Counted from the stretch's first letter, positions 943 through 48,237 are shown. The stretch is DNA of 64,000 nt from Patescibacteria group bacterium (GCA_035527655.1 DATLAB010000014.1:33099-97098); one strand, 5' to 3'. Program-made: numbers and translations. Notes: generated by a model from the sequence alone, not told the origin.

Positions 943-3900
943 ATGACGGCCGAGGAACAAGAAAACGGGGTCGATGATCTATCGCCCGCTGTTGAAAGCG
1001 AAGCACCACCGGCGACACAGCCAACGGAAATAGACCAGGATTCAGGTAAATCACTCCTAACGCTTAAGGTGTTGATTCCCTTCCTACTTCTGTTGGTTTT
1101 GATATTAGGCGCCTATTTCCGCTTTACTGGTCTTGATTGGGATAACACCTATCACCTTCACCCCGATGAGAGATTCCTGACCGATGTAGCCAGCCTTCTC
1201 CACTCCACCAATCCCATAACCTACCTGAAAACTTCGGAATCCCCGCTAAATCCTTATAATGTCGGCCGGACCTTCTTCGTCTATGGGAATTTTCCCATGA
1301 CGGCAACACGGTTGGTTGCTGAAGGTGTCGATTCGGTCTGCCAATCATTACCTGATTTATGCGAACGATCTTATGTTTTTTACGATGGGATCCACCTGGT
1401 CGGCCGGTCCTTGTCAGGGCTGGCAGACCTGGTTTCCATTCTCTTTATATTTCTGATTGGCAGACGGCTCTATGATTGGCGTGCCGGTATCCTAGGGGCT
1501 TTGCTGCTTGCCGCCGCAGTTCTACCAATTCAGCAATCCCACTTCTTCACCATGGACAATTGGGCGGCCGCGCTCGCCGTCATTACCATGTACGGCGCGG
1601 TTAGGGTCAGTGAAAATGACTCCAAATATCGCTGGTGGGCTTTTTTCGGAGTCCTCCTAGGTCTAACTGTAGCCTCTAGGATTAATCTGGCACCGCTGGC
1701 GGTCATGGCTGGTATAGCCGGCTTTGTGTGGCTGGCTCGCCGGGCGATTGACCATTCTCCAGAGCCTGGTTGGCGCTTCTTGTTAACAACCAAAGGCGGC
1801 CAAGACTTTCAACATGTCGTACTTGGCATCGCTATCGCAGCCATACTTTCAATCATCGTGTTTCGCCTGGCCCAGCCATATGCCTTCGCTGACAGCCAAA
1901 TAGTCAAGGAGGTCGTTAGCGCTGAAACCGGGCAACCACCTGGATTAATTGAAACGATCATCAAGTCTGTTTTCAGTTTTAATCCCCAATGGCGGGCGAA
2001 TATGACTGAAATCCAAAACCTGCAGAGTCCAGAGGCCAGCTTTCCACCGGCGCTACAATGGACCGACCGCTTACCAATTGTCTTCCCCTATTTGAATATT
2101 GTCTTGTGGGGCATGGGCCTGACCGCCGGTATCGCCGCGACCTTTGGCTTCTTTTGGGCCCTGTGGCGTATTATCAAAGCCAGACCAGATTGGACCTCCC
2201 ACCTCTTGATTGTCTCCTGGGTTGGACTGTACTTCATCTTCATGAGCACACGTTGGGTCAAGTCGATCAGATACTTCCTGCCGATTTATCCATTCCTGCT
2301 CCTGCTTGCCGGCTGGGCATTGGTGGAACTGTGGAACCGCGCCGGCCGAAGCAAAGCAAAAAAATCGATGGCGGCATTCGTTGCCCTCGTGGTAATTATT
2401 CCTTCGCTTCTGTGGGCAAATGCCTTCGTCGACACGTACAGGCAATCCGTCACTCGGGTCCAAGCCTCCCAATGGATGTTCGAAAACGTACCAACCGGTG
2501 CTACACTGCTCTATGAAAGTGCTGGTGAATCGCGGCAACTCCAGCTACCGTTGCGCCATTTTGAATTCATTCAGGATAGCATCCCGCTTTTTATTACCTT
2601 CAACATGCCGGAAACTGGGGATGTGACCGGCATTAGATTCAACTATTTGAGCGATCCTGATTCAGCGCTCGGAAGCGATAGTGGCGAAACTCTCAATGTC
2701 AGCTTGCTGGATGGATCAAACAACACAGCGCTTGTTGAAAAAGAATTGTCGCTGCAATTGGGCGATCAACGCCAATCTGCCTTATTGAACTGGTCAGGTG
2801 TGCCGGTTGCTCAAGGTTCTGTATACACACTATTGGCTGAAATAGGTCCTGGCGGACCAATTAGGGCGGGAACCAGCGTAATTGCCAATGAGCATTGGGA
2901 TGATTCTTTGCCTGTTCGATACGAAGGTCAGGACCCATTTGGCGGTTTTTACGACGGGACCGGTGATGGTCAGATCCAGATAACCCATCCGGATAGCGAA
3001 GAAAAGCGACAGAGCTTCTATCGCTGGCTAGAAGAATCAGATTACATTGTTCTGAGCAGCCAGCGCGCCGCTTGGTCGCTGCCAAGGCTTCCTTTTACAT
3101 TCCCCATGACCATCCGCTATTATGAGGCCTTATTTGGCGGCGAACTGGGCTTTGACCTGGTCAATGAGTTTCACTCAGATACCCATGTAGGCCCCTTATT
3201 TGTCAGTGATGTAGGCGGCGCCGTAAATTGGGGCGCTCCACCCGAGATTGGCTGGCCACCGCCTGGAATAATGGCTGCAGAAGAAGCCTTTAGTGTATAC
3301 GATCATCCACCGGTGTGGATATTCGAAAAAAGTGATCACTATAGTCCAGAATTGGTCCGAGACATTCTCGGGCCTGTTGACTTGAGGGATGTCATAGTGA
3401 TGTCACCCGGAGAAGCGACACGAGCGCCCAATGGGCTTCTCTTAGACGAATCAGACCGAGCGATTCAAGAGGCCAACGGCACTTTCAATGATCTATTTTT
3501 GACGGACGGTCTGTTAGCTCGTTACCCCGGGTTAGCCGCCGTTGTTTGGTGGTTGGTCGTCATCCTCTTGGGCTGGCTCTTTTTTCCGATCACCTTCATC
3601 GTATTTCGTGGATTGCCAGATCGTGGTTATCCACTGGCTCGAATACTCTCTCTCCTCCTTATCTCATATATTACCTGGCTCTTGGCCAGTCTGAAGATAC
3701 TTAGCCATTCGCGTTCAACCATAATTCTGGTCATTTTGGTTATGCTCGCTGCCTGCTTAGCCATCGCCATTTCCCAGAAAAGAGAGCTCCTAGGGTTCGT
3801 CAGAAAAAATCTCAGGCTGATCGGGCTGATCGAAATTTTGGGCATTGGTCTGTTTCTACTCTTTATCCTGATCCGGCTGGGTAACCCCGATGTCTGGGAT

Positions 3901-6045
3901 GTCATCTGGGGCGGCGAAAAACCTATGGATCTGTCATATTTGAACGCGGTTCTTAAGAGTACTTTCTTTCCCCCTTACGATCCCTGGTTTTCCGGCGGCT
4001 ATATCAATTATTACTATTATGGATTCGTATACGTTGGTTCTTTGATCAAACTATTGCAGATTGTGCCAACAATCGCCTATAACCTGATACTGCCGATGTT
4101 GGCCAGCTTTACGGGTCTCGCGGCTTTTAGTATTGCCTTCAATATTATCACTAAAAATGTAGGCCATCAGGCCAACAAAGTAGATGATGCAGACGGATTG
4201 AACGTACCAACCGCTCGTCTGTTACCCAATCGCCAGGCACTCTTTGGGGGATTCGTAGCAGCTGTTCTCATCCTGTTATTGGGAAATCTGGCAGAAATTA
4301 CGGTCGTATTCAATGCATGGTATAAGGCCGGCGAACTGTCCACTGCAACGGGCATCACGCCTATAGATGCCCTCCTTAGAACAGTCGATGGCGCGCTGGA
4401 TCTCTCCTTAACCGATGAAGTAGCCCCAATCTACCCTGGTGATTGGTTTTGGAACGCCTCCAGGACTATCAATGCCGATCCCGGGGAAGTACAACCTATC
4501 ACTGAGTTTCCTTTCTTTACGTTTCTATATGGCGATTTGCATGCCCACATGGTTGCCTTGCCTCTCACGTTACTGGCTCTCGGCTGGGCGGTTTCCATCG
4601 TTCTCCAGCATCTCGGCCAGGGCACTGATCCAGAGAAAGTTTTGCCTGTGTGGCAAAGGGCAATGCAGTTGTTGATTGGCGCTTTAGCTATTGGTGTGCT
4701 TTGGGCAACCAATACCTGGGACTATCCAACCTATTTATTCTTAGGTGTTTTGGCCATAGTCTATGGCGTCTATCTGCAGCGCAAGCGTTGGGGTTGGGGG
4801 ACAGTCGCTCAGGGCCTGTTCCAGGCCACCCTCCTGATCGTTGTGTCCTTCTTGTTATTCCTGCCTTTCACTGCCAACTACGGCCGAGGTTATAGTTCAT
4901 TCAGATTCTGGCCCGGATCTTACACGCAACTCGGTAATTACCTGCTCATTTATGGCCTGTTCCTTTTCCTTATCATCACCCATCTCGTTGTGGAATTTCG
5001 CCTTTGGACAAAAAGCTGGAGCCAAAAATCCTTAGAATATTGGGAACGCTTCGCCATTCCGGTTCTGCTTGGCCTGGTTCTTTATACCGCCATGCTAATT
5101 GTTTTATTGTCCAAAGGCTATTGGATCGCTCCTGTGGCGCTACTGTTATCAACATTGGCCGGGCTACTAGCCATCAGACCTGGTCTTCCGTTGGTTCGAA
5201 GAATCCCACTGGTGATGATCTCCTCTGCCTTGGCCTTGACCCTGCTTGTTGAGATCATCGTCCTCGACGGTGATATTGGGCGGATGAACACGGTATTTAA
5301 GTTCTATATGCAGGTCTGGGTATTGCTCAGCGTTGCTGCTGGTATTGTCATAGTCTGGGATTGGCCTTCGGTTTCAGCTCGGCCGACCGTGCGACGGGTT
5401 TGGCGGGTCGCCTTGATCATCCTGCTGTTCCTGGCGGCCTTATATCCTCTTTTGGCGACCAAAGCCAAATGGGACACTCGAATGAGCGATCAGGCCCCTA
5501 CGACCCTCGACGGAATGGCTTTTTTGCAAACAACCACGTACACAGATATCGCCAATGATGGCACCGGTCGCTTGATTGATCTCAACCAGGATTATCTGGC
5601 TATTCAGTGGATGCAACGAAACATCGAAGGGTCACCGGTAATAGCTGAAGCACATAGCGATAACCCCTACCGAGCCGCTGCCAATCGTGTGTCAATGTAC
5701 ACTGGACTTCCTTCGATAATAGGTTGGGATTGGCACCAGAGACAACAACGGGCTGTTTTACCGGGATCAATAGTTAGTGACCGTATTTTTGACGTGAACA
5801 CCCTGTTCAACACCCCAGATATCCCCCAAGCGATGGGTATTTTGGACAAGTACGGGGTATCGTATATTTATGTTGGACCTTTAGAGTGGACTTACTATAA
5901 CTCCCTCGGTTTATTAAAGTTTCAACAGATGGTCAGGGATGGCTTTATCCGGGATGTTTATAATGAAAATGGCGTCACAATCTACGAGGTCCTGGATCAG
6001 ACGGATGCCACGACAGCCCTACTTACAACGACTAGGAACCAATAA
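943..6045 (+). CDS. Giant (about 1700 aa) membrane protein: N-terminal GT-C/PMT-like glycosyltransferase-like region fused to a DUF2298 / Chlor_Arch_YYY domain
   Basis: The ORF is open from TTG 928, but ATG 943 preceded by GGGAGA is the likelier start. An acidic motif HLHPDERF follows the first TM, and many TM helices follow. The C-terminal half carries the DUF2298/TIGR03662 hallmarks INYYYYGFVY and FPFFTFLYGDLHAHM. The C-terminal soluble domain (IEGSPVIAEAHS...GLPSIIGWDWHQ) is paralogous to that of the next gene. Confidence 0.8.
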   Translation: MTAEEQENGVDDLSPAVESEAPPATQPTEIDQDSGKSLLTLKVLIPFLLLLVLILGAYFRFTGLDWDNTYHLHPDERFLTDVASLLHSTNPITYLKTSESPLNPYNVGRTFFVYGNFPMTATRLVAEGVDSVCQSLPDLCERSYVFYDGIHLVGRSLSGLADLVSILFIFLIGRRLYDWRAGILGALLLAAAVLPIQQSHFFTMDNWAAALAVITMYGAVRVSENDSKYRWWAFFGVLLGLTVASRINLAPLAVMAGIAGFVWLARRAIDHSPEPGWRFLLTTKGGQDFQHVVLGIAIAAILSIIVFRLAQPYAFADSQIVKEVVSAETGQPPGLIETIIKSVFSFNPQWRANMTEIQNLQSPEASFPPALQWTDRLPIVFPYLNIVLWGMGLTAGIAATFGFFWALWRIIKARPDWTSHLLIVSWVGLYFIFMSTRWVKSIRYFLPIYPFLLLLAGWALVELWNRAGRSKAKKSMAAFVALVVIIPSLLWANAFVDTYRQSVTRVQASQWMFENVPTGATLLYESAGESRQLQLPLRHFEFIQDSIPLFITFNMPETGDVTGIRFNYLSDPDSALGSDSGETLNVSLLDGSNNTALVEKELSLQLGDQRQSALLNWSGVPVAQGSVYTLLAEIGPGGPIRAGTSVIANEHWDDSLPVRYEGQDPFGGFYDGTGDGQIQITHPDSEEKRQSFYRWLEESDYIVLSSQRAAWSLPRLPFTFPMTIRYYEALFGGELGFDLVNEFHSDTHVGPLFVSDVGGAVNWGAPPEIGWPPPGIMAAEEAFSVYDHPPVWIFEKSDHYSPELVRDILGPVDLRDVIVMSPGEATRAPNGLLLDESDRAIQEANGTFNDLFLTDGLLARYPGLAAVVWWLVVILLGWLFFPITFIVFRGLPDRGYPLARILSLLLISYITWLLASLKILSHSRSTIILVILVMLAACLAIAISQKRELLGFVRKNLRLIGLIEILGIGLFLLFILIRLGNPDVWDVIWGGEKPMDLSYLNAVLKSTFFPPYDPWFSGGYINYYYYGFVYVGSLIKLLQIVPTIAYNLILPMLASFTGLAAFSIAFNIITKNVGHQANKVDDADGLNVPTARLLPNRQALFGGFVAAVLILLLGNLAEITVVFNAWYKAGELSTATGITPIDALLRTVDGALDLSLTDEVAPIYPGDWFWNASRTINADPGEVQPITEFPFFTFLYGDLHAHMVALPLTLLALGWAVSIVLQHLGQGTDPEKVLPVWQRAMQLLIGALAIGVLWATNTWDYPTYLFLGVLAIVYGVYLQRKRWGWGTVAQGLFQATLLIVVSFLLFLPFTANYGRGYSSFRFWPGSYTQLGNYLLIYGLFLFLIITHLVVEFRLWTKSWSQKSLEYWERFAIPVLLGLVLYTAMLIVLLSKGYWIAPVALLLSTLAGLLAIRPGLPLVRRIPLVMISSALALTLLVEIIVLDGDIGRMNTVFKFYMQVWVLLSVAAGIVIVWDWPSVSARPTVRRVWRVALIILLFLAALYPLLATKAKWDTRMSDQAPTTLDGMAFLQTTTYTDIANDGTGRLIDLNQDYLAIQWMQRNIEGSPVIAEAHSDNPYRAAANRVSMYTGLPSIIGWDWHQRQQRAVLPGSIVSDRIFDVNTLFNTPDIPQAMGILDKYGVSYIYVGPLEWTYYNSLGLLKFQQMVRDGFIRDVYNENGVTIYEVLDQTDATTALLTTTRNQ

Positions 6046-6057
6046 GTTCACTTAGAT

Positions 6058-8694
6058 ATGGCAAATTCAGAGATTCTAGCCGCGATTAGATGGTGGGCGG
6101 TCCTGATGGTGATCGGTGCCCTGGCCTTCCCACTCACTTATCGGCTCCTGCATCGCTTACCTGATCGTGGCTATGCATTTGTTAAGATGACCGGCTTGTT
6201 AGTCGTAGCCTATCTATTTTGGCTTCTCGGATCTCTCGGCTTTCTAAACAACTCGCTTGGCGCTATTCTCGTCGCCCTCTTTACTCTGTCCGCACTCTCA
6301 TTTTGGGTGCTTCGTACGGACAGTCGTAACCGTTTGGCTAACGAAACGGAAAACCAAGATTTGGGAGCAATTGGCTGGCTTCGCGAAAACTGGCGTTACG
6401 TTTTGGCCGTCGAACTTCTTTTCGCCATCATGTTTGGCGTATGGATCTGGGTTCGCGCCCAAAATCCGACCATAACTGGCACAGAAAAACCGATGGAATT
6501 CGCCTTCTTAAATTCTATCGGCCGCAGTTCCTCCTTCCCACCCCTGGATCCCTGGTTGTCTGGCTTTGGTATCAGCTACTATTACTTTGGTTACGTCATG
6601 ACTTCAGTTTTAGTACGTCTGGCAGCCGTTCCAGAACAGATTGCCTTTAATCTGGCCATTGCCTGGCTGGTAGCCGGAACTGCTTTAGGGGCATTTGGCG
6701 TTGTTTACAACCTGATCGCAGCCCAAAAAGATACAAGCCGGGTAAAGGCAACAATCTTCGGCTTTGTAGCAGCCATCGCGATCGCCGTAGCCGGCAATAG
6801 CGAGATGTTGCTTGAACTCCTGTATGCGAACGACATCGGCAGCGAGGGATTTTGGACCTGGCTGGATATTCGCGACTTGAATGAGCCGCCAGGACAAGGA
6901 GAAGAGGCTCGCTATCAAACCGCGGGGTGGTGGTGGTGGCGTTCATCTCGGGTCATCCATGAGTACCATCTTTCCGGGGTGCCAGAGGAAGGTTTAGAAC
7001 CCATCGTTGAGACACCGGCGTTCAGCTTCGTATTGGGAGATTTGCATGCCCATGTATTGTCCCTTCCATTTGCTTTCTTAAGCCTTGCCGTTGCTTTTTC
7101 CTGGTGGTTGAATCCAGATCCGCCAATATTTGATCTTCGGAAATGGTTTACCAGGCGGGGTTTTAGATATCAATTCGCGACCATAAAACGAGAAGATCTG
7201 GCGTTGTTTCTATTTACTATTTTAGTCTTGGGTGGGTTATCCTTTCTAAATACCTGGGACGTATTGATTCATCTGGTGATTGTCGTTGGCGCCTATTTAC
7301 TTGCACGATGGCGTACTGTCCAGGTCTGGAGCCGAGATCTATTGTTTGAGGCCTTCACCCTCGCCATGGTGCTATCGTTGCTGGCGATTATTAGTTATCT
7401 TCCCTTCTATCTCGGATTTCGCTCACAGGCCGGTGCACCATTTCTTTTGCCGATGGCCATGCAGCCGACGCGTCTGGCCCATGCCTTAACTGTTTTTGTC
7501 ATGCCCTTGAGTAGCATTTTGCTTTTGGTGGGATCGCTGATAGTTTGGTCACGCCACCAACCAAAAAACCTGATGCCAAGACGCCCTTGGATCATGGCAA
7601 GCGCTCTTACCGTCGCACTCATCATTGGCCTCTTCATCTTAATGCTGGTACTCGGCTGGGTTATCGCGGTAAGTCCCGAAGGCGAAGGAAGAATCGTCAA
7701 CCTGGCCAAAGAGCTTAATCTCGGATTAGCGCCCCTGCCGGGTAGTCAGGAAATTGGCGAGCGGATAACCTGGGCTACGTCGGCTGTTGGCGCCCTGGCG
7801 CCGACATTTTTATCTGCACGGCTTGGGCGACCGGCGCTCGTATTGCTTCTTTCTTTTTTAGTGGCCGCAGTAATCTTTCTGCTAATTCGCTTTCTGAACA
7901 AGGTGGAGGAGACAGAGGATCGACCACAACGGATCAGCACCGGCGAGTCGCTACCCTTTGCCCTGCTCCTGATCGGCACAGCCACAGTGTTGGTTCTCGT
8001 ACCAGAGTTTGTCTATCTACGCGATAATTTTGGTCAACGGGTTAATACGATATTCAAATTTTACTATCAGGCCTGGGTCTTTTTCGGCATCGCGGCTGTT
8101 TTTGCACTGGATTATTTATTGCGCAGATTTCGAACAACAGGAATTATTGTCACTGTTTGGTATGGAACTCTCCTACTAGTCGCCTTACTTTTTCCCGTGT
8201 TCGCCGTCCAGTCCCGGGCAATTGAATACCGGGGACAGCCCACCAACGAGTTCCGGCGACCAGCTACTCTCGATGGCCTGGCAAATCGCGATCCGGCCGA
8301 ACGAGATGCCTTGCTCTGGCTGCGCGAAAACATGGAGGGCACACCGGTCATTGTGGAAGCAGTGGGCGGGCAGTATTCCGACTATGGCCGCGTGGCATCC
8401 GCTACCGGTCTACCCACCCTGCTCGGCTGGGCTGGGCATGAATATCAGTGGCGTGGATACACCGACGAGCCCAGCCGGCGAGATCCCGTCATTAGAACAA
8501 TTTACAGCCCCGGGAACTGGGATACAACCGCACAACTCCTGGATGATTATAACGTCTCACTCATCTATTTTGGTTCACTTGAACGTCAGGATTTTGGTCC
8601 GCGGGCCCAAGAAAAACTGTCTCAGAATTTGGAAGTGGCCTATAGCAATGAAAGCGTGACGATATATCGCTGGCAACCGAAGGAAACGCCTTGA
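6058..8694 (+). CDS. DUF2298 / Chlor_Arch_YYY family integral membrane protein (878 aa)
   Basis: Carries the motifs ISYYYFGYVM and FSFVLGDLHAHV, about 15 or more TM helices, and a C-terminal domain MEGTPVIVEAVG...GLPTLLGWAGHEYQW paralogous to the preceding gene. It starts 12 nt after the upstream stop. Confidence 0.85.
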   Translation: MANSEILAAIRWWAVLMVIGALAFPLTYRLLHRLPDRGYAFVKMTGLLVVAYLFWLLGSLGFLNNSLGAILVALFTLSALSFWVLRTDSRNRLANETENQDLGAIGWLRENWRYVLAVELLFAIMFGVWIWVRAQNPTITGTEKPMEFAFLNSIGRSSSFPPLDPWLSGFGISYYYFGYVMTSVLVRLAAVPEQIAFNLAIAWLVAGTALGAFGVVYNLIAAQKDTSRVKATIFGFVAAIAIAVAGNSEMLLELLYANDIGSEGFWTWLDIRDLNEPPGQGEEARYQTAGWWWWRSSRVIHEYHLSGVPEEGLEPIVETPAFSFVLGDLHAHVLSLPFAFLSLAVAFSWWLNPDPPIFDLRKWFTRRGFRYQFATIKREDLALFLFTILVLGGLSFLNTWDVLIHLVIVVGAYLLARWRTVQVWSRDLLFEAFTLAMVLSLLAIISYLPFYLGFRSQAGAPFLLPMAMQPTRLAHALTVFVMPLSSILLLVGSLIVWSRHQPKNLMPRRPWIMASALTVALIIGLFILMLVLGWVIAVSPEGEGRIVNLAKELNLGLAPLPGSQEIGERITWATSAVGALAPTFLSARLGRPALVLLLSFLVAAVIFLLIRFLNKVEETEDRPQRISTGESLPFALLLIGTATVLVLVPEFVYLRDNFGQRVNTIFKFYYQAWVFFGIAAVFALDYLLRRFRTTGIIVTVWYGTLLLVALLFPVFAVQSRAIEYRGQPTNEFRRPATLDGLANRDPAERDALLWLRENMEGTPVIVEAVGGQYSDYGRVASATGLPTLLGWAGHEYQWRGYTDEPSRRDPVIRTIYSPGNWDTTAQLLDDYNVSLIYFGSLERQDFGPRAQEKLSQNLEVAYSNESVTIYRWQPKETP

Positions 8695-40666: not shown

Positions 40667-41050
40667 TCACAAGGCACGCATTGTACGACCAGCTACAGCC
40701 AGTCCTTGATAAATCAATCCAGTGCTTAGCTGGACCAACAAAACCCCAGCTGCCAACTTTTGCCGTGTATCCATTGCCGAAAATACGCCGCCAACACCAA
40801 TAACCGATTTTTGACCCTGTTCGGAATGGCCTATATAAGCAATCATATCGTTGCTTTTTTGGTCTGAATGAGTTCCCTTGAAGCCCCCGACCTCACTATA
40901 ATGTTGGCTCGATAATCCATTGCTGACTAAAGTTTTATAGATAGCCACAATATCGTCAATGTCTTGGCTGAGGGTGCTATCCAGGATCTGCTCGATCTCA
41001 TGAAAAGAGGGACAAAGCGCAATTTTGACGTGCAGGGCTTTATTTCGCAT
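40667..41050 (-). CDS. Hypothetical protein (127 aa)
   Basis: This is the only ORF of appreciable size between lepA and acyP on the shared strand. It has no SD and no recognisable motif. Confidence 0.3.
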   Translation of the reverse strand: MRNKALHVKIALCPSFHEIEQILDSTLSQDIDDIVAIYKTLVSNGLSSQHYSEVGGFKGTHSDQKSNDMIAYIGHSEQGQKSVIGVGGVFSAMDTRQKLAAGVLLVQLSTGLIYQGLAVAGRTMRAL

Positions 41051-43560: not shown

Positions 43561-43667
43561 CTAGACCCAATGCAGCACATTTTATCGTTTTGTTCTTTCT
43601 TGTTCAATGTCACCCTTTCCATCATAGTGACACTTTCATTGAACAATAACAAAATCACAAATTCGGG

Positions 43668-43696
43668 TTGACTATTTTAGCCAATCCGTATATCCT
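43668..43696 (+). promoter_or_regulatory. Candidate promoter TTGACT-17 nt-TATCCT upstream of the small-peptide ORF
   Basis: TTGACT at 43668-73, a 17-nt spacer, then TATCCT at 43691-96, about 250 nt upstream of the 56-codon ORF in an AT-rich non-coding stretch. This is a pattern match only. Confidence 0.3.
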
Positions 43697-43697
43697 T

Positions 43698-43737
43698 TAG
43701 TACTAAGGTCATGTAGTACTGTAGTACCCTAGGTACC
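43698..43737 (+). promoter_or_regulatory. Cluster of four GTAC-core repeats (TAGTACT, GTAGTAC x2 tandem, GGTACC), operator-like
   Basis: The sequence is tAGTACTaaggtcatGTAGTACtGTAGTACcctagGTACC, immediately downstream of the candidate -10. AGTAC/GGTAC motifs recur at 45297-45301, 45357-45361 and 45365-45370, upstream of the kinase gene. Confidence 0.35.
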
Positions 43738-43948
43738 TTAATAGTTTAATAGACAGATGGTGTGTACGTGCTTCAGTTCCTGGAATTGATATTCGGTCCA
43801 TGTAATCCTTCGCCAGACCAGCCATTTATTTTTATGTAATCAATATTCTCTCATCGGCGAAAGATTGCCCGATTGTCAATGCCAAGTTTTTATTTATTGG
43901 AGAGTGGGATGCCCCACAATCCAACCCTTATGGAAAGAGGAGAAATAA

Positions 43949-44119
43949 ATGAGCGAGCAACTGAATATCAACACGTTCCATCAGCTATTAAACTCGGAAT
44001 CCGATCAAGGTTCACTTCTGGGTACGTTACGCAGTATAACGGAAGTAAACGATCCGGCAGACCTAAACCTGAAAGCTGGTGGTACGTCGCTGGGTACATG
44101 GGCGGGCTGGCGGAGATAA
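43949..44119 (+). CDS. Unlisted 56-aa ORF: candidate ComX-like (RiPP-type) precursor peptide, MSEQLNINTFHQLLNSESDQGSLLGTLRSITEVNDPADLNLKAGGTSLGTWAGWRR
   Basis: I translated it by hand. The SD GAGGAG at 43937-42 lies 6 nt before ATG 43949, and TAA is at 44117-19. It falls below the 60-aa cut-off of the ORF track. It has an acidic/polar leader, a Gly-Gly, then an 11-residue tail with two Trp. It is on the same strand as the IPPS-fold gene and 102 nt upstream of it. Confidence 0.55.
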   Translation: MSEQLNINTFHQLLNSESDQGSLLGTLRSITEVNDPADLNLKAGGTSLGTWAGWRR

Positions 44120-44221
44120 GCAACTGCAATCTATTAAGATAGCTTAAGATAATAGAAGTGGAATCGATGGTTCTGACGGCTTGTGAAGGCGGTCTGGTGA
44201 TGGCTATGGCGTTAGGTATTC

Positions 44222-45181
44222 TTGGCGGTAAATAGCTCAGAGATCAAAGAGATCCTCGGGACGTTTCCGGAAATTGGAAAGTGGCCGGATTTGGTCGGAG
44301 TTTTTGATCGTGCCGGGGACGTGAAGCGGCCGGATTGGGAGCTACCTATATTAGCCTGTCAGGCGGTTGGCGGAGACCGCTCCCAGGCTCTACCCGGAGC
44401 TGTTGCCGTTGCATGTCTCCAGTTGAGCATCATCATCGTTGACGATATTCTCGATGATGACTGCGGGGGTGTTCACTTCCTTTATGGGAATGGACCAGCG
44501 GCAAATATGGCGCTTGCCTACCAATCACTTGCGGCTTTGAGTTTGTGTCGCGCAGAAATAAGTGACTTTGACAAGGCAAGAGCCAGCGAGGCTCTGAACA
44601 GAGCGGCGTTAAAGACGGCAACTGGCCAGCAACTGGATGTTCAAAACCTTCGTGGTGAAGAAAGTTATTGGCTGGTTATACACGCGAAGAGCACACCTTT
44701 CTATGGCTTTGCCTTTGAGCTTGGTGCAATTCTTGGATCTGCATCAGCCAGTATCACCCAGGATATGTACTCTCTTGGAGTCGTTATTGGCGAGATCATC
44801 CAGGTTGAGGATGATCTTATCGATGCACTGGAAGTGCCTGCTAATGCAGACTGGAAGCAAGGGCGTAATAACTTGCTTTTGCTTTACGCTCAAACAGCGG
44901 AGCATGAAAAACGAGAACAATTCCTCCGGTTACTAACTAAAATTGATGATCCTGGAGCATTAGCAGAGGCCCAGCGGATCCTGGTTTCATGTGGTGCAGT
45001 TTCCTATGCATCTTACCAATTGATAAATCGTTATCGAAAAGCAATAAAACTCCTTAGGGGTATGTCCCTAATAGATCCGTCGGGTCTCCATCACGTGCTT
45101 GATGAGTACGCTGATTCCCTCCGAACCAGACTAAAATTGAGTGATATTGAGTTATTCAATGAATCGTTAAAGGATATCTAA
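44222..45181 (+). CDS. Polyprenyl-diphosphate-synthase-fold protein (trans-IPPS family) lacking IPP-binding basic motifs; candidate ComQ-like peptide prenyltransferase
   Basis: First Asp-rich motif IIIVDDILDDD (44441-44461), then GQQLDV, KST and the second Asp-rich motif IQVEDDLID (44810-44824). The canonical GGKRxRP is GGDRSQALP here, and the RRG following the first motif is CGG. TTG start (44222); the frame is closed just upstream by TAG 44213-15. Confidence 0.8.
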   Translation: MAVNSSEIKEILGTFPEIGKWPDLVGVFDRAGDVKRPDWELPILACQAVGGDRSQALPGAVAVACLQLSIIIVDDILDDDCGGVHFLYGNGPAANMALAYQSLAALSLCRAEISDFDKARASEALNRAALKTATGQQLDVQNLRGEESYWLVIHAKSTPFYGFAFELGAILGSASASITQDMYSLGVVIGEIIQVEDDLIDALEVPANADWKQGRNNLLLLYAQTAEHEKREQFLRLLTKIDDPGALAEAQRILVSCGAVSYASYQLINRYRKAIKLLRGMSLIDPSGLHHVLDEYADSLRTRLKLSDIELFNESLKDI

Positions 45182-45196
45182 ACCTCATCAGCTAAA

Positions 45197-45229
45197 TATT
45201 GCTGTTCTTTGTTGCCTTTTACAGCAATA
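45197..45229 (+). other. 9-bp perfect hairpin between the IPPS-fold gene and the kinase gene (no U-tract)
   Basis: TATTGCTGT (45197-45205) pairs with ACAGCAATA (45221-45229) around a 15-nt loop, 16 nt after the stop at 45181. It could be a processing site, a stabiliser or a weak terminator. Confidence 0.4.
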
Positions 45230-45408
45230 CCTCCTGCTTGTTATACCCAGTCAATTTCTTCAACTTGTTCATAATTACTCTTATACCATATCTGATAGTA
45301 CGAGATATCTATCCTACATAGGAACATAGTGGGATTGCAGATGACAACTGCAGGCAAGTACAATGGTACTATCGACTATAAATAACTGTTGAAATCGAAT
45401 ACGGACTG

Positions 45409-48237
45409 ATGAGTTACAAATTTAGGGGAAAATTCAGCCACTTAAATCGGTCGTTGCTAGCCTTTGCGATCTTAGTGCTAGGGGTGTACCTGTACTACAC
45501 CCTGAGTTTTATTGGTCTGACCCCATACCCCGGAATCGTATTTACGGCCATATCTGGCGGATGGCAGGTAAATGACTCCTCCCTGGCCTCTGTAGCAGTC
45601 GACGAAGTACTCGTCCAAATTGCCGACTTAACTTATGCTGATTACCGGCTTAACCCATTTAGTGTTCCTTTCGATGGATATACACCGGGTGACGCTGTGC
45701 CCGATGTGATTACGGAGTCCGGCGAAACTCTTTCGCTGGTCATGCCAATCCCAAGTTTTCAGGATCGCCTGCGACGCCTTGTCGGTACTTTGTGGTTCTT
45801 TCCATTCTGGATGGCTGGAACTGCCGTATTATTATTTCTAAGACCACGTGATCTGAGTTGGCGATTGCTGATTGCCTTTATGTACCTTGCCGCAACCTGG
45901 GCGCTTGTTGGAAGCATCGCCAATTGGCAAGTTGGCGCGTCCACTATTGTTTCCATTCTCGTTGCCTGGCTGATGGTTCCGTGTGTGATTCATTTGCATC
46001 TGACTGTGCCAAGCCCGATATTCGTCTCTTTTACCCGGCGGATAATGCCCCTCATTTATATTGGCTCAATCGCCATTGCCATTATTGAGATAACCCAAAG
46101 TTCCGACCGGCTCAGCATCAGTCTCCTGGCTTTAGCTCTGGCTGTAATGTATAGCATTCTGATTCTGGCGTATCGCTCGTTTCGCAAAGGTGCACCCATA
46201 TCAGACCGAAATTCAGCCCGATTGATGCTTTCGGGTATTGGCCTTGCCTTTGGGCCGGGCATTCTGGTCATTACGTTGCCCCAGGTGTCGGCATTGTCGG
46301 TGCCTCCAGGGTTCGGTGTGAGCCTGGCTTTCATATCACTGCCAATCTTTCCGATCTCCTACACCTATGCCATCTATAAACGTCAGTTGGGACAACTTGA
46401 ATTTAGGGCGAACCGGCTCCTCGGCATTTACAGTTTCATACTCCTCTATCCTACGATCTTTATTGTGGTTCTTCTCTTAGGCGAACAGTGGCTGGTTACA
46501 TCCAGCACCAAAACCTTTTATCTCTTATTCGTATCGATTATTTTTGTGATGGCAACGCCGCCAATCCTAAATTTTCTCCAAAAAACAATGAACCGATTGG
46601 CATATGGCACTGAGCATGATCCGGATGATATTCTGCGAGTATTCGCCAAGAATATTCCTTTGGCCAAGAGTCGCGCTGCACTCTCAGATTCGCTCAACAG
46701 AGATATATTACCAGCCCTGCTGATTAGACAATCAGCGTTATCATTATTCGATAGCGATGGGGTTGAGCTAATCTATGCAGATGGCATATCGCAATCCGCT
46801 GTTCCAAGCACATCGGATGAGCTTGAAAAACTGGGTCTTGCCGCTAGAGCCTACAGACCACCTGCCACGGAAAATATAATGGATCATGACTGGGTTCGTT
46901 TGGCCATACCCCTGATCACACCAGAGAAGGCAATTGGTGTCTGGTTGTTTGGGCGCAGAGATCCCGACGATTTTTACCCCCAGAATGATATTGACTTATT
47001 ACATTCCTTGGCGAACCAAATGGCGCCGGTTATCGAAAATGTCAGGCTTTATGAAGAATTGCAACGCCATGCCAACGATTTGACCGAAGAAGTTGCTAAC
47101 CGGACATCAGAACTTCGGGCGGAGAAAGACAGAACCCAGGCAATTCTTGACAGTGCCGGTGAAGGAGTATTCTTCACAGATCCAGCTGGCGTCATTCTTT
47201 ATGCCAATCAGGCCTTAGCCCATCAGTCCGGTTTTACGGCTGATGATCTTATCGGAAAAACTCTTGAATTATGGCAAACCGAGGAAGATGCCCATGATTC
47301 TTACAGAGATATGTGGACGGCGATTTACACTGGGCACGAATGGGGTGGCGAGATGCTTTTGCATCGGAAAGATAACACTTACTGTGATGTCAACCTCGTA
47401 ATGGCGCCGATTCTCTCGGAAGGTGGCAAGTTGTCCGGCTTTGTTGGTGTTCAATCTGATATTAGCAAGCTTAAGGAAGTCGACCGCCTCAAATCAAATA
47501 TTATCTCCAGCGTCTCCCATGAATTAAAAACCCCTCTCACCACAATTAAAACATACCTCATGCTCATACAGCGTGGTAAACCGGAGAAAAAAGATAGCTA
47601 TATGGTCGTATTAAACAGGGAAGCCGACCGACTAGCGATAATTATTGAAGATCTCTTGGATCTCTCCTCCCTGGAAACCGGCAAGATCCCGTCGCGACTT
47701 GAGCCAATGGATTTGTTATCAACCGTCGGGATAGCCATCACCAGTTGCCAAACATTAGCCAATACAAAGCAAATCTCAATCAACTCAGCTATTAATGGCG
47801 CGCTACCCATGGCCATCGCGGATAGCAGTCAAATGGAACAAGTATTAATGAATCTCATTGTAAATGCGCTAAACTACTCATTTCATGGTAGTTCTGTGAC
47901 GATTCGAACCGGTGAAGGTTCATTAAATAGCCATGAAGGCGTATGGGTGCGCGTCTCCGATAATGGACCCGGTATCTCGGAGGGTGACTTGCCTCATTTA
48001 TTTGACCGGTTCTATCGGGGTGAAGCAGCGCTTGAAAGTGGCGCTCCGGGTACAGGACTTGGGCTGGCTATTTGCAAGGAGATTATTGATCGCCATCAAG
48101 GTAAGATTGAGGTTGAAAGCAAACCAGGTGGCGGCGCGGCCTTCACGGTCTGGCTGCCGGCACTGAAACCGGCAAAGATGGAGCATGACCTTCTGACTCC
48201 GAAACCGGCTGTAAAATCTGTGGACACGACCGATTAA
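45409..48237 (+). CDS. Sensor histidine kinase: roughly 10-TM N-terminal sensor region - GAF - coiled coil - PAS - HisKA - HATPase_c
   Basis: About ten hydrophobic helices fall in residues 15-390, with a roughly 85-aa loop after TM1. GAF-like WVRLAIPLITPEKAIGVWLFGRRDP, PAS ILDSAGEGVFFTDPAGVILYANQA, H-box SSVSHELKTPLTTI, N-box NLIVNALNYS, G1 DNGPGI, G2 GTGLGLAICKEI. Confidence 0.9.
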   Translation: MSYKFRGKFSHLNRSLLAFAILVLGVYLYYTLSFIGLTPYPGIVFTAISGGWQVNDSSLASVAVDEVLVQIADLTYADYRLNPFSVPFDGYTPGDAVPDVITESGETLSLVMPIPSFQDRLRRLVGTLWFFPFWMAGTAVLLFLRPRDLSWRLLIAFMYLAATWALVGSIANWQVGASTIVSILVAWLMVPCVIHLHLTVPSPIFVSFTRRIMPLIYIGSIAIAIIEITQSSDRLSISLLALALAVMYSILILAYRSFRKGAPISDRNSARLMLSGIGLAFGPGILVITLPQVSALSVPPGFGVSLAFISLPIFPISYTYAIYKRQLGQLEFRANRLLGIYSFILLYPTIFIVVLLLGEQWLVTSSTKTFYLLFVSIIFVMATPPILNFLQKTMNRLAYGTEHDPDDILRVFAKNIPLAKSRAALSDSLNRDILPALLIRQSALSLFDSDGVELIYADGISQSAVPSTSDELEKLGLAARAYRPPATENIMDHDWVRLAIPLITPEKAIGVWLFGRRDPDDFYPQNDIDLLHSLANQMAPVIENVRLYEELQRHANDLTEEVANRTSELRAEKDRTQAILDSAGEGVFFTDPAGVILYANQALAHQSGFTADDLIGKTLELWQTEEDAHDSYRDMWTAIYTGHEWGGEMLLHRKDNTYCDVNLVMAPILSEGGKLSGFVGVQSDISKLKEVDRLKSNIISSVSHELKTPLTTIKTYLMLIQRGKPEKKDSYMVVLNREADRLAIIIEDLLDLSSLETGKIPSRLEPMDLLSTVGIAITSCQTLANTKQISINSAINGALPMAIADSSQMEQVLMNLIVNALNYSFHGSSVTIRTGEGSLNSHEGVWVRVSDNGPGISEGDLPHLFDRFYRGEAALESGAPGTGLGLAICKEIIDRHQGKIEVESKPGGGAAFTVWLPALKPAKMEHDLLTPKPAVKSVDTTD

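Follow-up and report, generated by a model that had tools for sequence, protein, structure and literature searches.

Between positions 43,949 and 48,237 of a 64,000-nt stretch of DNA catalogued as Patescibacteria group bacterium (GCA_035527655.1 DATLAB010000014.1:33099-97098; the whole stretch is called the window below), three same-strand genes lie in a row: X, encoding a short peptide with Trp residues near its C-terminus; Q, encoding an enzyme with the isoprenyl diphosphate synthase (IPPS) fold; and P, encoding a polytopic sensor histidine kinase. These are real genes, and they are strictly co-conserved. It is fairly probable that the three form a signalling module working like ComQXP of Bacillus -- the chemistry, the export and the pairing of ligand with receptor being argued from homology and linkage. 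Since the Trp-tailed peptide, the remodelled enzyme and the ComP-related kinase make up a conserved Chloroflexota module, it is probably one of lipid-tagged, ComX-type peptide signalling outside the Firmicutes. The three elements had been picked out earlier from the sequence alone (the original prediction); on checking the sequence, all were found at the positions and spacings then given, and in the order X-Q-P rather than Q-X-P, and the reading put on them then has in silico support. Their features are collected in Table 1.

Three co-conserved genes and their products

Relatives were gathered from one syntenic genome locus (L001, a metagenome-assembled genome (MAG) labelled uncultured Chloroflexia bacterium, with a Q 91% identical to that of the window) and 80 metagenome loci, about 56 of which hold full or near-full members of the Q family at 36-100% identity. 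A single-protein query of genome contigs returned L001 only, such single queries reaching close relatives only, while a word-index search returned 272 relatives of Q. In a profile scan of 1.84 billion representatives, 252 Q-family clusters (counted at 50% identity) stood at E <= 1e-30, apart from about 11,000 generic IPPS matches. The named members of the family belong to Chloroflexota, Anaerolineales and Promineifilaceae MAGs.

In 47 of the 51 loci with enough upstream sequence, a hidden Markov model (HMM) locates X 30-332 nt 5' of Q and on its strand; as this model was trained on the same peptides that it counts, the figure describes position and is not an independent detection. By the same HMM, X is slightly further upstream in three of the remaining four loci, and L012 gives no match. 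A model-free, mechanical listing of open reading frames (ORFs) in the 700 nt 5' of each enzyme gene also recovered the X ORFs, an X-like ORF of 45-65 codons and the same design being present in nearly all loci. The sensor protein adjoins Q in all 44 loci with enough flank, downstream in 37 and divergently upstream in 7. The survey of the family loci found no conserved neighbour besides X, Q and the sensor gene. The trio is retained from 100% down to 36% Q identity, also where P is inverted in a distant clade, and the arrangement far exceeds chance. The search for a short Trp-ending ORF beside homologs of the enzyme, which the original prediction had proposed as a check, thus found one kept down to 36% enzyme identity, and the kinase that it had named as the third partner has a constant counterpart in these loci.

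The window X has no match in Pfam or NCBIfam, and all 54 of its database relatives are unnamed or 'hypothetical'. The peptides share an N-terminal pattern h-x-x-F-h-x-L-L...L-L-x-A-L-R-x-L-T...P-E-E, followed by a variable linker and a terminal Trp motif. The window copy ends W-A-G-W-R-R (motif W-x-G-W, with Trp at positions -6 and -3); other tails include WTGWS, WSGWSW, WGGWY, WDIWR and TWFIWWKPEE along with the WAGWRR of the window, and PTWY, PMWW or PSWF in one sub-clade. F10 and one Trp are invariant (39 peptides; for the Trp, 39-48 relatives), and W-x-x-W occurs in both main clades of X. The AlphaFold2 (AF2) model places helices at residues 7-15 and 20-31 and gives the tail, residues 44-56, a predicted local distance difference test score (pLDDT) below 50, so modelled a two-helix leader followed by a disordered tail, the latter resembling the tail of StheX as described in passages of a preprint (bioRxiv 10.64898/2026.08.29.745113). 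All clades have a strong Shine-Dalgarno sequence ahead of X. Between the window and L001 the dN/dS of X is 0.12, next to 0.15 for Q and 0.08 for the kinase, and it is 0.08-0.24 in 10 of 11 pairs; by this measure the X ORF is under purifying selection, like its neighbours. Two to three of the 39 X peptides weakly match the Nif11-type leader of peptides that are made by the ribosome and modified post-translationally (RiPPs; TIGR03798, E 0.036; PF07862, E 0.0032), and the X leader may be a remote Nif11-like domain. The nitrile-hydratase-like leader peptide (NHLP) model matches none of the 39.

Some variants of the gene set have also been seen. Two tandem Q paralogs follow a single X at L011:1067-3024, and apparently do so in L012 too, where the contig is cut; a second X-like ORF lies 5' of X at L041:4204-4413; and the database protein P0337 is a fused tandem repeat of X.

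Q matches PF00348 at 67.4 bits (cut-off 27) and contains both Asp-rich motifs, DDILDDD and DDLID, as had been read in this 319-aa IPPS-fold protein from the start; its AF2 model (pLDDT 89.8) has the IPPS fold. In an alignment with heptaprenyl synthases -- the canonical ones that came up as weak matches of the family search -- the residues D74, D75, D78, D80, K156 (of the KT motif), Q194, D197, D198 and D201 are invariant in the Q family. The first motif, DDxxDxD, is invariant throughout, and the second, DDxxD, was matched in 262 of 269 sequences, the remaining 7 giving no motif match. Elsewhere the family departs from the canonical pattern: GGKRxRP is replaced by a variable stretch that ends in an invariant D38-W39, RRG is cut to a single Arg (Gly in the window copy), and the Lys of GKP is gone, with an invariant PANxDW following and P206 invariant as well. 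The basic residues of GGKRxRP, RRG and GKP contact isopentenyl diphosphate (IPP) and diphosphate in solved structures of farnesyl diphosphate (FPP) synthase. On this alignment, Q is a separate branch of the trans-IPPS enzymes in which the basic residues that canonical synthases have at the IPP site (regions I, II and VII) are lost or variable. All characterised transferases related to the trans-isoprenyl diphosphate synthases target Trp (review, PMC13290415), and Q is a putative peptide (Trp) prenyltransferase.

The tail of X and the active site of Q appear to change together. Single-Trp tails (PTWY, PMWW, PTWS, PSWF) are found in L024, L026, L038, L040 and L042. The Q genes of four of these loci (L024, L026, L038 and L042) have GVNVNIYDD, GVNLNIYDD or GGIVQIYDD in place of GEIIQIEDD, and the same four have IKW, IHW or VKW in place of PDW. 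The type of X tail co-varies with the active-site motifs of Q, in a comparison uncorrected for phylogeny.

P begins with about ten hydrophobic segments over residues 15-390, which bears out the polytopic N-terminus predicted for it, and continues into a weak GAF match, PAS, HisKA (H-box SHELKTPL) and HATPase_c. Residues 1-420 and the GAF-like segment are conserved together in all loci with enough flank. Between the first and second transmembrane (TM) helices lies a loop that Pfam PDZ_2 matches in 6 of 17 family members; a profile of the loop compared with the PDB retrieves, at marginal E-values, PDZ domains for the most part. In a 2022 AlphaFold study, ComP was given ten TM helices and, in the stretch from TM1 to TM2, a PDZ domain that was proposed to bind ComX and was modelled as facing outward (PMC9620489). 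Among the four authentic comQXPA loci used for comparison, residues 33-101 of the ComP at L086:5134-7434 score 27.8 bits with PDZ_6, 27.0 with PDZ_2 and 25.3 with PDZ, reaching the Pfam thresholds in agreement with that study, and the ComP proteins of other pherotypes give weak PDZ scores. When the sensor profile was aligned with the ComP N-terminus by hhalign, a probability of 92.4-92.6% was obtained (E 5e-7), over 281-319 colinear columns running from TM1 and the PDZ region to TM9, while reversed or block-shuffled ComP controls gave 0.2-10.7%. The ComP profile is a shallow alignment of four sequences, and the signal appears only with it: one ComP sequence set against the sensor profile gives a probability of 0.7%. 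As these alignments read, with that shallow profile on the ComP side, the sensors of P and of Bacillus ComP are homologous.

The same sensor is joined to several outputs. In a distant clade (L047, L049-L054 and L060), with a Q about 36% identical to that of the window, the kinase is laid out as sensor-GAF-HisKA_3-HATPase and is of ComP length, HisKA_3 being matched in L051, L054 and L060. A REC-GerE response regulator is adjacent in L047, L049 and L054 as well as in L042, where it follows the kinase. The clade has a four-part, ComQXPA-like set on Chloroflexota-type contigs, noted in L054 and also in L047, L049, L051 and L060. In L054 itself, X-Q is flanked by the divergent HisKA_3 kinase (2358-4631, minus strand) and the REC-GerE regulator (5922-6671, minus strand). 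At L006:5899-8382 and L010:5960-8764, the sensor and GAF are followed by an HD-GYP-type domain (Pfam HD_5) and no kinase; here the presumed peptide signal would feed the turnover of cyclic di-GMP (c-di-GMP). In L022 the same sensor is carried on a hybrid kinase. Because the sensor stays the same while its outputs vary, it is the sensor, and not the kinase core, that is the partner of X and Q.

The proposed mechanism and its rivals

In the working model, transcription would start from the TTGACT-17-TATCCT element at 43668-43696 and run through a constrained leader of about 250 nt, and translation of X would give a 56-aa precursor in which a two-helix leader is followed by a flexible core with W-x-G-W. 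Q, as a dimer, would use its two Asp-rich motifs to bind an allylic prenyl diphosphate, having given up the acceptor site for IPP; it would dock the X leader and alkylate one or both of the tail Trp residues with a geranyl, farnesyl or geranylgeranyl group. The tail would then be cleaved and released by functions encoded outside the locus, likewise in Bacillus, and the lipidated peptide would be sensed outside the cell by the PDZ-like loop and ten-helix membrane bundle of P, which would relay the signal through GAF, PAS and HisKA/HATPase to an unlinked response regulator. We infer the relation of enzyme to substrate, Trp as the acceptor, and the length and position of the prenyl chain, and likewise the processing and export of the peptide, its pairing with the receptor and a role in cell-density signalling.

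Several observations weigh against so close a parallel with Bacillus. X and ComX have no similarity (hhalign gives a probability of 0.3% when the X profile is set against five authentic ComX sequences), and X has no match to the Pfam ComX family, PF05952. Q is no nearer to ComQ than to the heptaprenyl synthases: with B. subtilis ComQ, 100% identical to P0121, and relatives named ComQ as the reference, hhalign scores the Q family against ComQ at 67.8 (E 8.6e-9), the family against the heptaprenyl synthase HepT at 76.9 (E 3.6e-10), and ComQ against HepT at 66.5. The three are therefore equidistant, and Q is a third branch, outside the ComQ family. Its best structural matches are geranylgeranyl diphosphate (GGPP) synthases (5jfq and 1wy0, Foldseek TM-score about 0.78, next to 0.71 for the indole prenyltransferase Ord1), though Foldseek gives no separation of synthases from Ord1 for this protein. 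In place of DDxxD, authentic ComQ has Q-I-x-[GNS]-D-Y. Passages of a preprint describe the second motif of ComQ and of StheQ as N-D-x-x-x and report that changing N to D cuts 90-98% of activity (bioRxiv 10.64898/2026.08.29.745113). Because Q holds the full DDxxD at the point where that change abolishes most of the activity of ComQ and StheQ, its mechanism cannot be a copy of that of ComQ, and the catalytic details must differ. The window kinase has, as had been read earlier, a HisKA core with GAF (a weak match) and PAS modules and not the HisKA_3 core of ComP; its sensor loop has no Pfam PDZ match of its own; and no protease, exporter or regulator was found in the locus, in the survey of neighbours across the loci and the ten flanking ORFs of the window.

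Three other explanations of the same genes have been considered. The one that survives best, unlikely as we judge it, is that X and Q make a prenylated RiPP, such as a membrane-active lipopeptide, which is not mainly a signal and which P regulates or self-senses. The surroundings hold no conserved transporter, immunity gene, protease or additional tailoring gene, and the sole invariant partner is a receptor homologous to ComP and wired to varied outputs; set against these are the leader and C-terminal core, laid out as in a RiPP precursor, the weak Nif11-leader matches of 2-3 X peptides, the tandem Q paralogs and duplicated copies of X, and the precedent of PalX/PalQ in Paenibacillus, which was presented as a RiPP cluster with a kinase among its genes (PMC10853753).

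It is improbable, and somewhat more so, that X is an intracellular modulator of Q or P, and that Q makes a non-peptide isoprenoid ligand or lipid which P senses in the membrane. The predicted helical leader of X could indeed bind another protein, the large membrane domain of P would suit the sensing of lipids, and the locus holds no genes for export or processing. The most conserved feature of X, however, is the Trp motif of a disordered tail, which is typical of a substrate core; its tail type co-varies with active-site residues of Q; and the homologous ComP sensor reads a peptide, with its PDZ loop outward in the published model (PMC9620489).

Least probable, by a small margin, is that Q is a chain-elongating GGPP or FPP synthase of the usual kind, with X and the kinase as mere neighbours or as regulators of isoprenoid metabolism: it does pass the PF00348 threshold with both Asp-rich motifs intact, its closest matches in sequence and structure are the archaeal GGPP synthases 1wy0 and 5jfq, and relatives are named 'geranylgeranyl pyrophosphate synthase' in their sources, but all NCBIfam synthase equivalogs fall far under their cut-offs (the best at 77.9 bits against 450; IdsA at 76.5 against 468), GGKRxRP is replaced, RRG is down to one Arg (Gly in the window copy) and the Lys of GKP is gone, and there is no rationale for a housekeeping enzyme to be strictly paired, in every locus examined, with a peptide of this Trp-tailed type and a sensor like that of ComP. 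That Q might prove a canonical synthase was one of the outcomes named in the original prediction as refuting it, and by the equivalog scores and the lost or variable basic residues of regions I, II and VII it is not one. The signalling module of peptide, prenyltransferase and receptor remains the preferred reading.

Layout of the locus and its upstream region

Table 1. Features of the X-Q-P locus, numbered from the first nucleotide of the window (FARM and SARM, first and second Asp-rich motifs)
Feature	Position	Strand	Remarks
Promoter candidate, sigma-70-like	43668..43696	+	TTGACT-17 nt-TATCCT, then TTAGTACT
Conserved non-coding leader of X	43656..43948	+	includes GGAAAGAGGAG
Shine-Dalgarno sequence of X	43932-43942	+	GGAAAGAGGAG; AGGAG 6 nt 5' of the ATG
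X	43949..44119	+	56-codon ORF, ATG start, ends ...KAGGTSLGTWAGWRR
X leader and tail	43949..44119	+	leader about residues 1-43, tail 44-56; W51 at 44099-44101, W54 at 44108-44110
C-terminal tryptic fragment of X bearing W51 and W54			AGGTSLGTWAGWR
Q	44222..45181	+	319 aa, TTG start, 102 nt past the X stop
Q FARM	44441-44461	+	DDILDDD, D74-D80
Q SARM	44810-44824	+	DDLID, D197-D201
P	45409..48237	+	942 aa, 227 nt beyond Q
P sensor module	45409..46608	+	about 10 TM, residues 15-390 (hydropathy scan)
PDZ-like extracytoplasmic loop of P, TM1-TM2	45520-45780	+	residues 38-124
P cytoplasmic part	46669..48237	+	GAF-like about 421-545, PAS 575-686, HisKA 695-758, HATPase_c 805-918

The non-coding leader of X (about 290 nt) is 89.5% identical between the window and L001, and identity falls to 54.5% in the adjoining 96 nt on its 5' side; the dS of the flanking genes between the two is 0.26-0.35. 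Within it, TTGACT, 17 nt and TAxxxT, followed by TAGTAC, recurs about 250-280 nt 5' of X in L001, L003, L008, L019 and L016. Because the identity of the leader is high and this element recurs in relatives, the comparison suggests a conserved putative promoter followed by a long constrained leader or operator. Scans for promoters and terminators in the X-Q region gave no enrichment over shuffles, no Rfam family was found in 43.1-45.45 kb, and the spacer between X and Q shows no RNA structure out of the ordinary (z = -0.18). GTAC-rich repeats are also present in the leader, at about 43700-43745.

The neighbours in the window are housekeeping genes (LepA, FtsJ/S4 methyltransferase, epimerase, PNPase and RadC). 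The statement in the original prediction that the window holds no response regulator stands for the ten flanking ORFs between 35.6 and 53.9 kb, which are those that the scan covered, and among them no ComA-like NarL/GerE regulator was found. At 40667-41050, on the minus strand, a 127-aa ORF matches only the C-terminal part of dihydroorotate dehydrogenase (profile positions 157-284 of 291), and is either a truncated gene or one whose start codon was placed too late in the ORF listing.

Relation to known systems

We know of no defined system of cell-to-cell signalling in the Chloroflexota, whose filamentous members dominate activated sludge, sediments and mats; if the module does what is proposed here, the phylum would have its first defined peptide quorum-sensing system. 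At slightly less than even chances, and so tentatively, ComX-type prenyl-peptide signalling may be an old and widespread Chloroflexota system (some 250 enzyme clusters at 50% identity, mostly from Anaerolineae-type MAGs), with a ComP-homologous receptor whose outward PDZ loop reads the tail, its own branch of enzymes whose second Asp-rich motif is complete, a W-x-x-W core to which two prenyl groups may be added, and a sensor rewired to two kinase classes and to HD-GYP (c-di-GMP) outputs. What is new is the complete module, its breadth and the homology of its receptor -- a large, unannotated Chloroflexota branch with its own type of enzyme -- whereas ComQ-like chemistry in the Chloroflexi (StheQ/StheX, from passages of a preprint) and PalPXQ in Paenibacillus were already known. 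The homology of the receptor ties the family to Bacillus, and with this comes the question whether ComQXPA is of ancient origin or has passed between phyla. The full DDxxD of Q, set beside the Asn needed in ComQ and, in the preprint passages, in StheQ, gives a natural comparison from which to learn how the IPPS fold passed from chain elongation to alkylation of indole, and the family is a possible source of new catalysts for peptide lipidation.

The likeness to ComQXPA lies in a short precursor with a conserved Trp near its C-terminus, an adjacent IPPS-fold enzyme without the IPP-site motifs, and an adjacent polytopic kinase with a homologous sensor, made up of TM1, a PDZ loop and nine further TM helices; in the distant clade of the Q family, it extends to the HisKA_3 core and the REC-GerE regulator. 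The differences are that the window genes run X-Q-P with spacers, where those of ComQXPA overlap in the order Q-X-P-A; that Q has a true DDxxD, where ComQ has a pseudo-SARM (N/G-D-x-x-x); that the window X is unrelated to ComX in sequence and has two Trp residues (W-x-G-W); and that the window kinase combines GAF, PAS and HisKA without an adjacent regulator, in a Chloroflexota host. The original prediction had called the system analogous or distantly related to ComQXPA; on the receptor side the relation is closer than was then assumed, because of the ComP-homologous sensor and of the HisKA_3 and REC-GerE proteins of the distant clade. A 2014 census did find comQXPA-like loci in Firmicutes only (PMC4008528). 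The view that such loci are essentially confined to that phylum, which the prediction shared, is outdated, as passages of the StheQ/StheX preprint describe a working pair in the Chloroflexi (bioRxiv 10.64898/2026.08.29.745113).

According to those passages (dated 31 Aug 2026), which also present crystal structures, StheQ of Sphaerobacter thermophilus farnesylates the penultimate Trp of StheX in vitro. The pair shares with Q and X its phylum and the pairing of an IPPS-fold enzyme with a short C-terminal-Trp peptide that has an ordered leader and a disordered tail. It differs, as there described, in that StheQ has D-E-x-x-D and a pseudo-SARM (N215-D216-x-x-D219) where Q has DDxxD, and in that StheX has 69 aa, lies downstream of its enzyme gene and ends W-W-x; a receptor kinase is not mentioned in the passages. 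The StheQ fingerprint taken from them (D82, D85, E86, D89, D91, D153, A167, K174, Q212, N215, D216, D219 and T267) is matched at 7 of 13 positions at best among 288 retrieved proteins, and StheX was not recovered by the X profile. Q is set apart from StheQ by this published fingerprint and description, and the two may be remote kin.

In PalPXQ of Paenibacillus alvei, a histidine kinase is encoded together with an NHLP peptide and a Trp prenyltransferase that is like a terpene synthase (PMC10853753). It is likewise a three-gene set of kinase, precursor and Trp prenyltransferase of the isoprenoid synthase superfamily, with the peptide gene preceding that of the enzyme. PalX, however, has an NHLP leader and its acceptor is the very last residue, whereas the Trp residues of the window X are at -6 and -3, and PalQ is terpene-synthase-like and forms a cluster of its own (PalQ and PalP being compared by description only).

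Ord1 is the third-best PDB match of Q by sequence (E 4e-16), and the two have in common AVGGD...ALP..A..C.Q, ahead of the first Asp-rich motif, and, in the second, Q-x-x-D-D. Q216 and D219 of Ord1 are required for the prenylation of indole (PMC12510300), and Q194 and D197 of Q align with them; since canonical synthases also hold the Q-x-x-D pair, it permits an Ord1-like assignment without discriminating in its favour. Ord1 takes free indole or tryptophan as its substrate, in oridamycin-type biosynthesis; it retains GKP, reads DDxxxxD, and is not reported to be accompanied by a precursor peptide or a sensor kinase. With the canonical trans-IPPS enzymes (GGPP synthase and HepT; PF00348), finally, Q shares the fold, both Asp-rich motifs, the Lys of KT and the Gln before the SARM; it differs from them in that the basic residues of regions I, II and VII are lost or variable, in scoring far under the equivalog cut-offs, and in being always paired with X and P.

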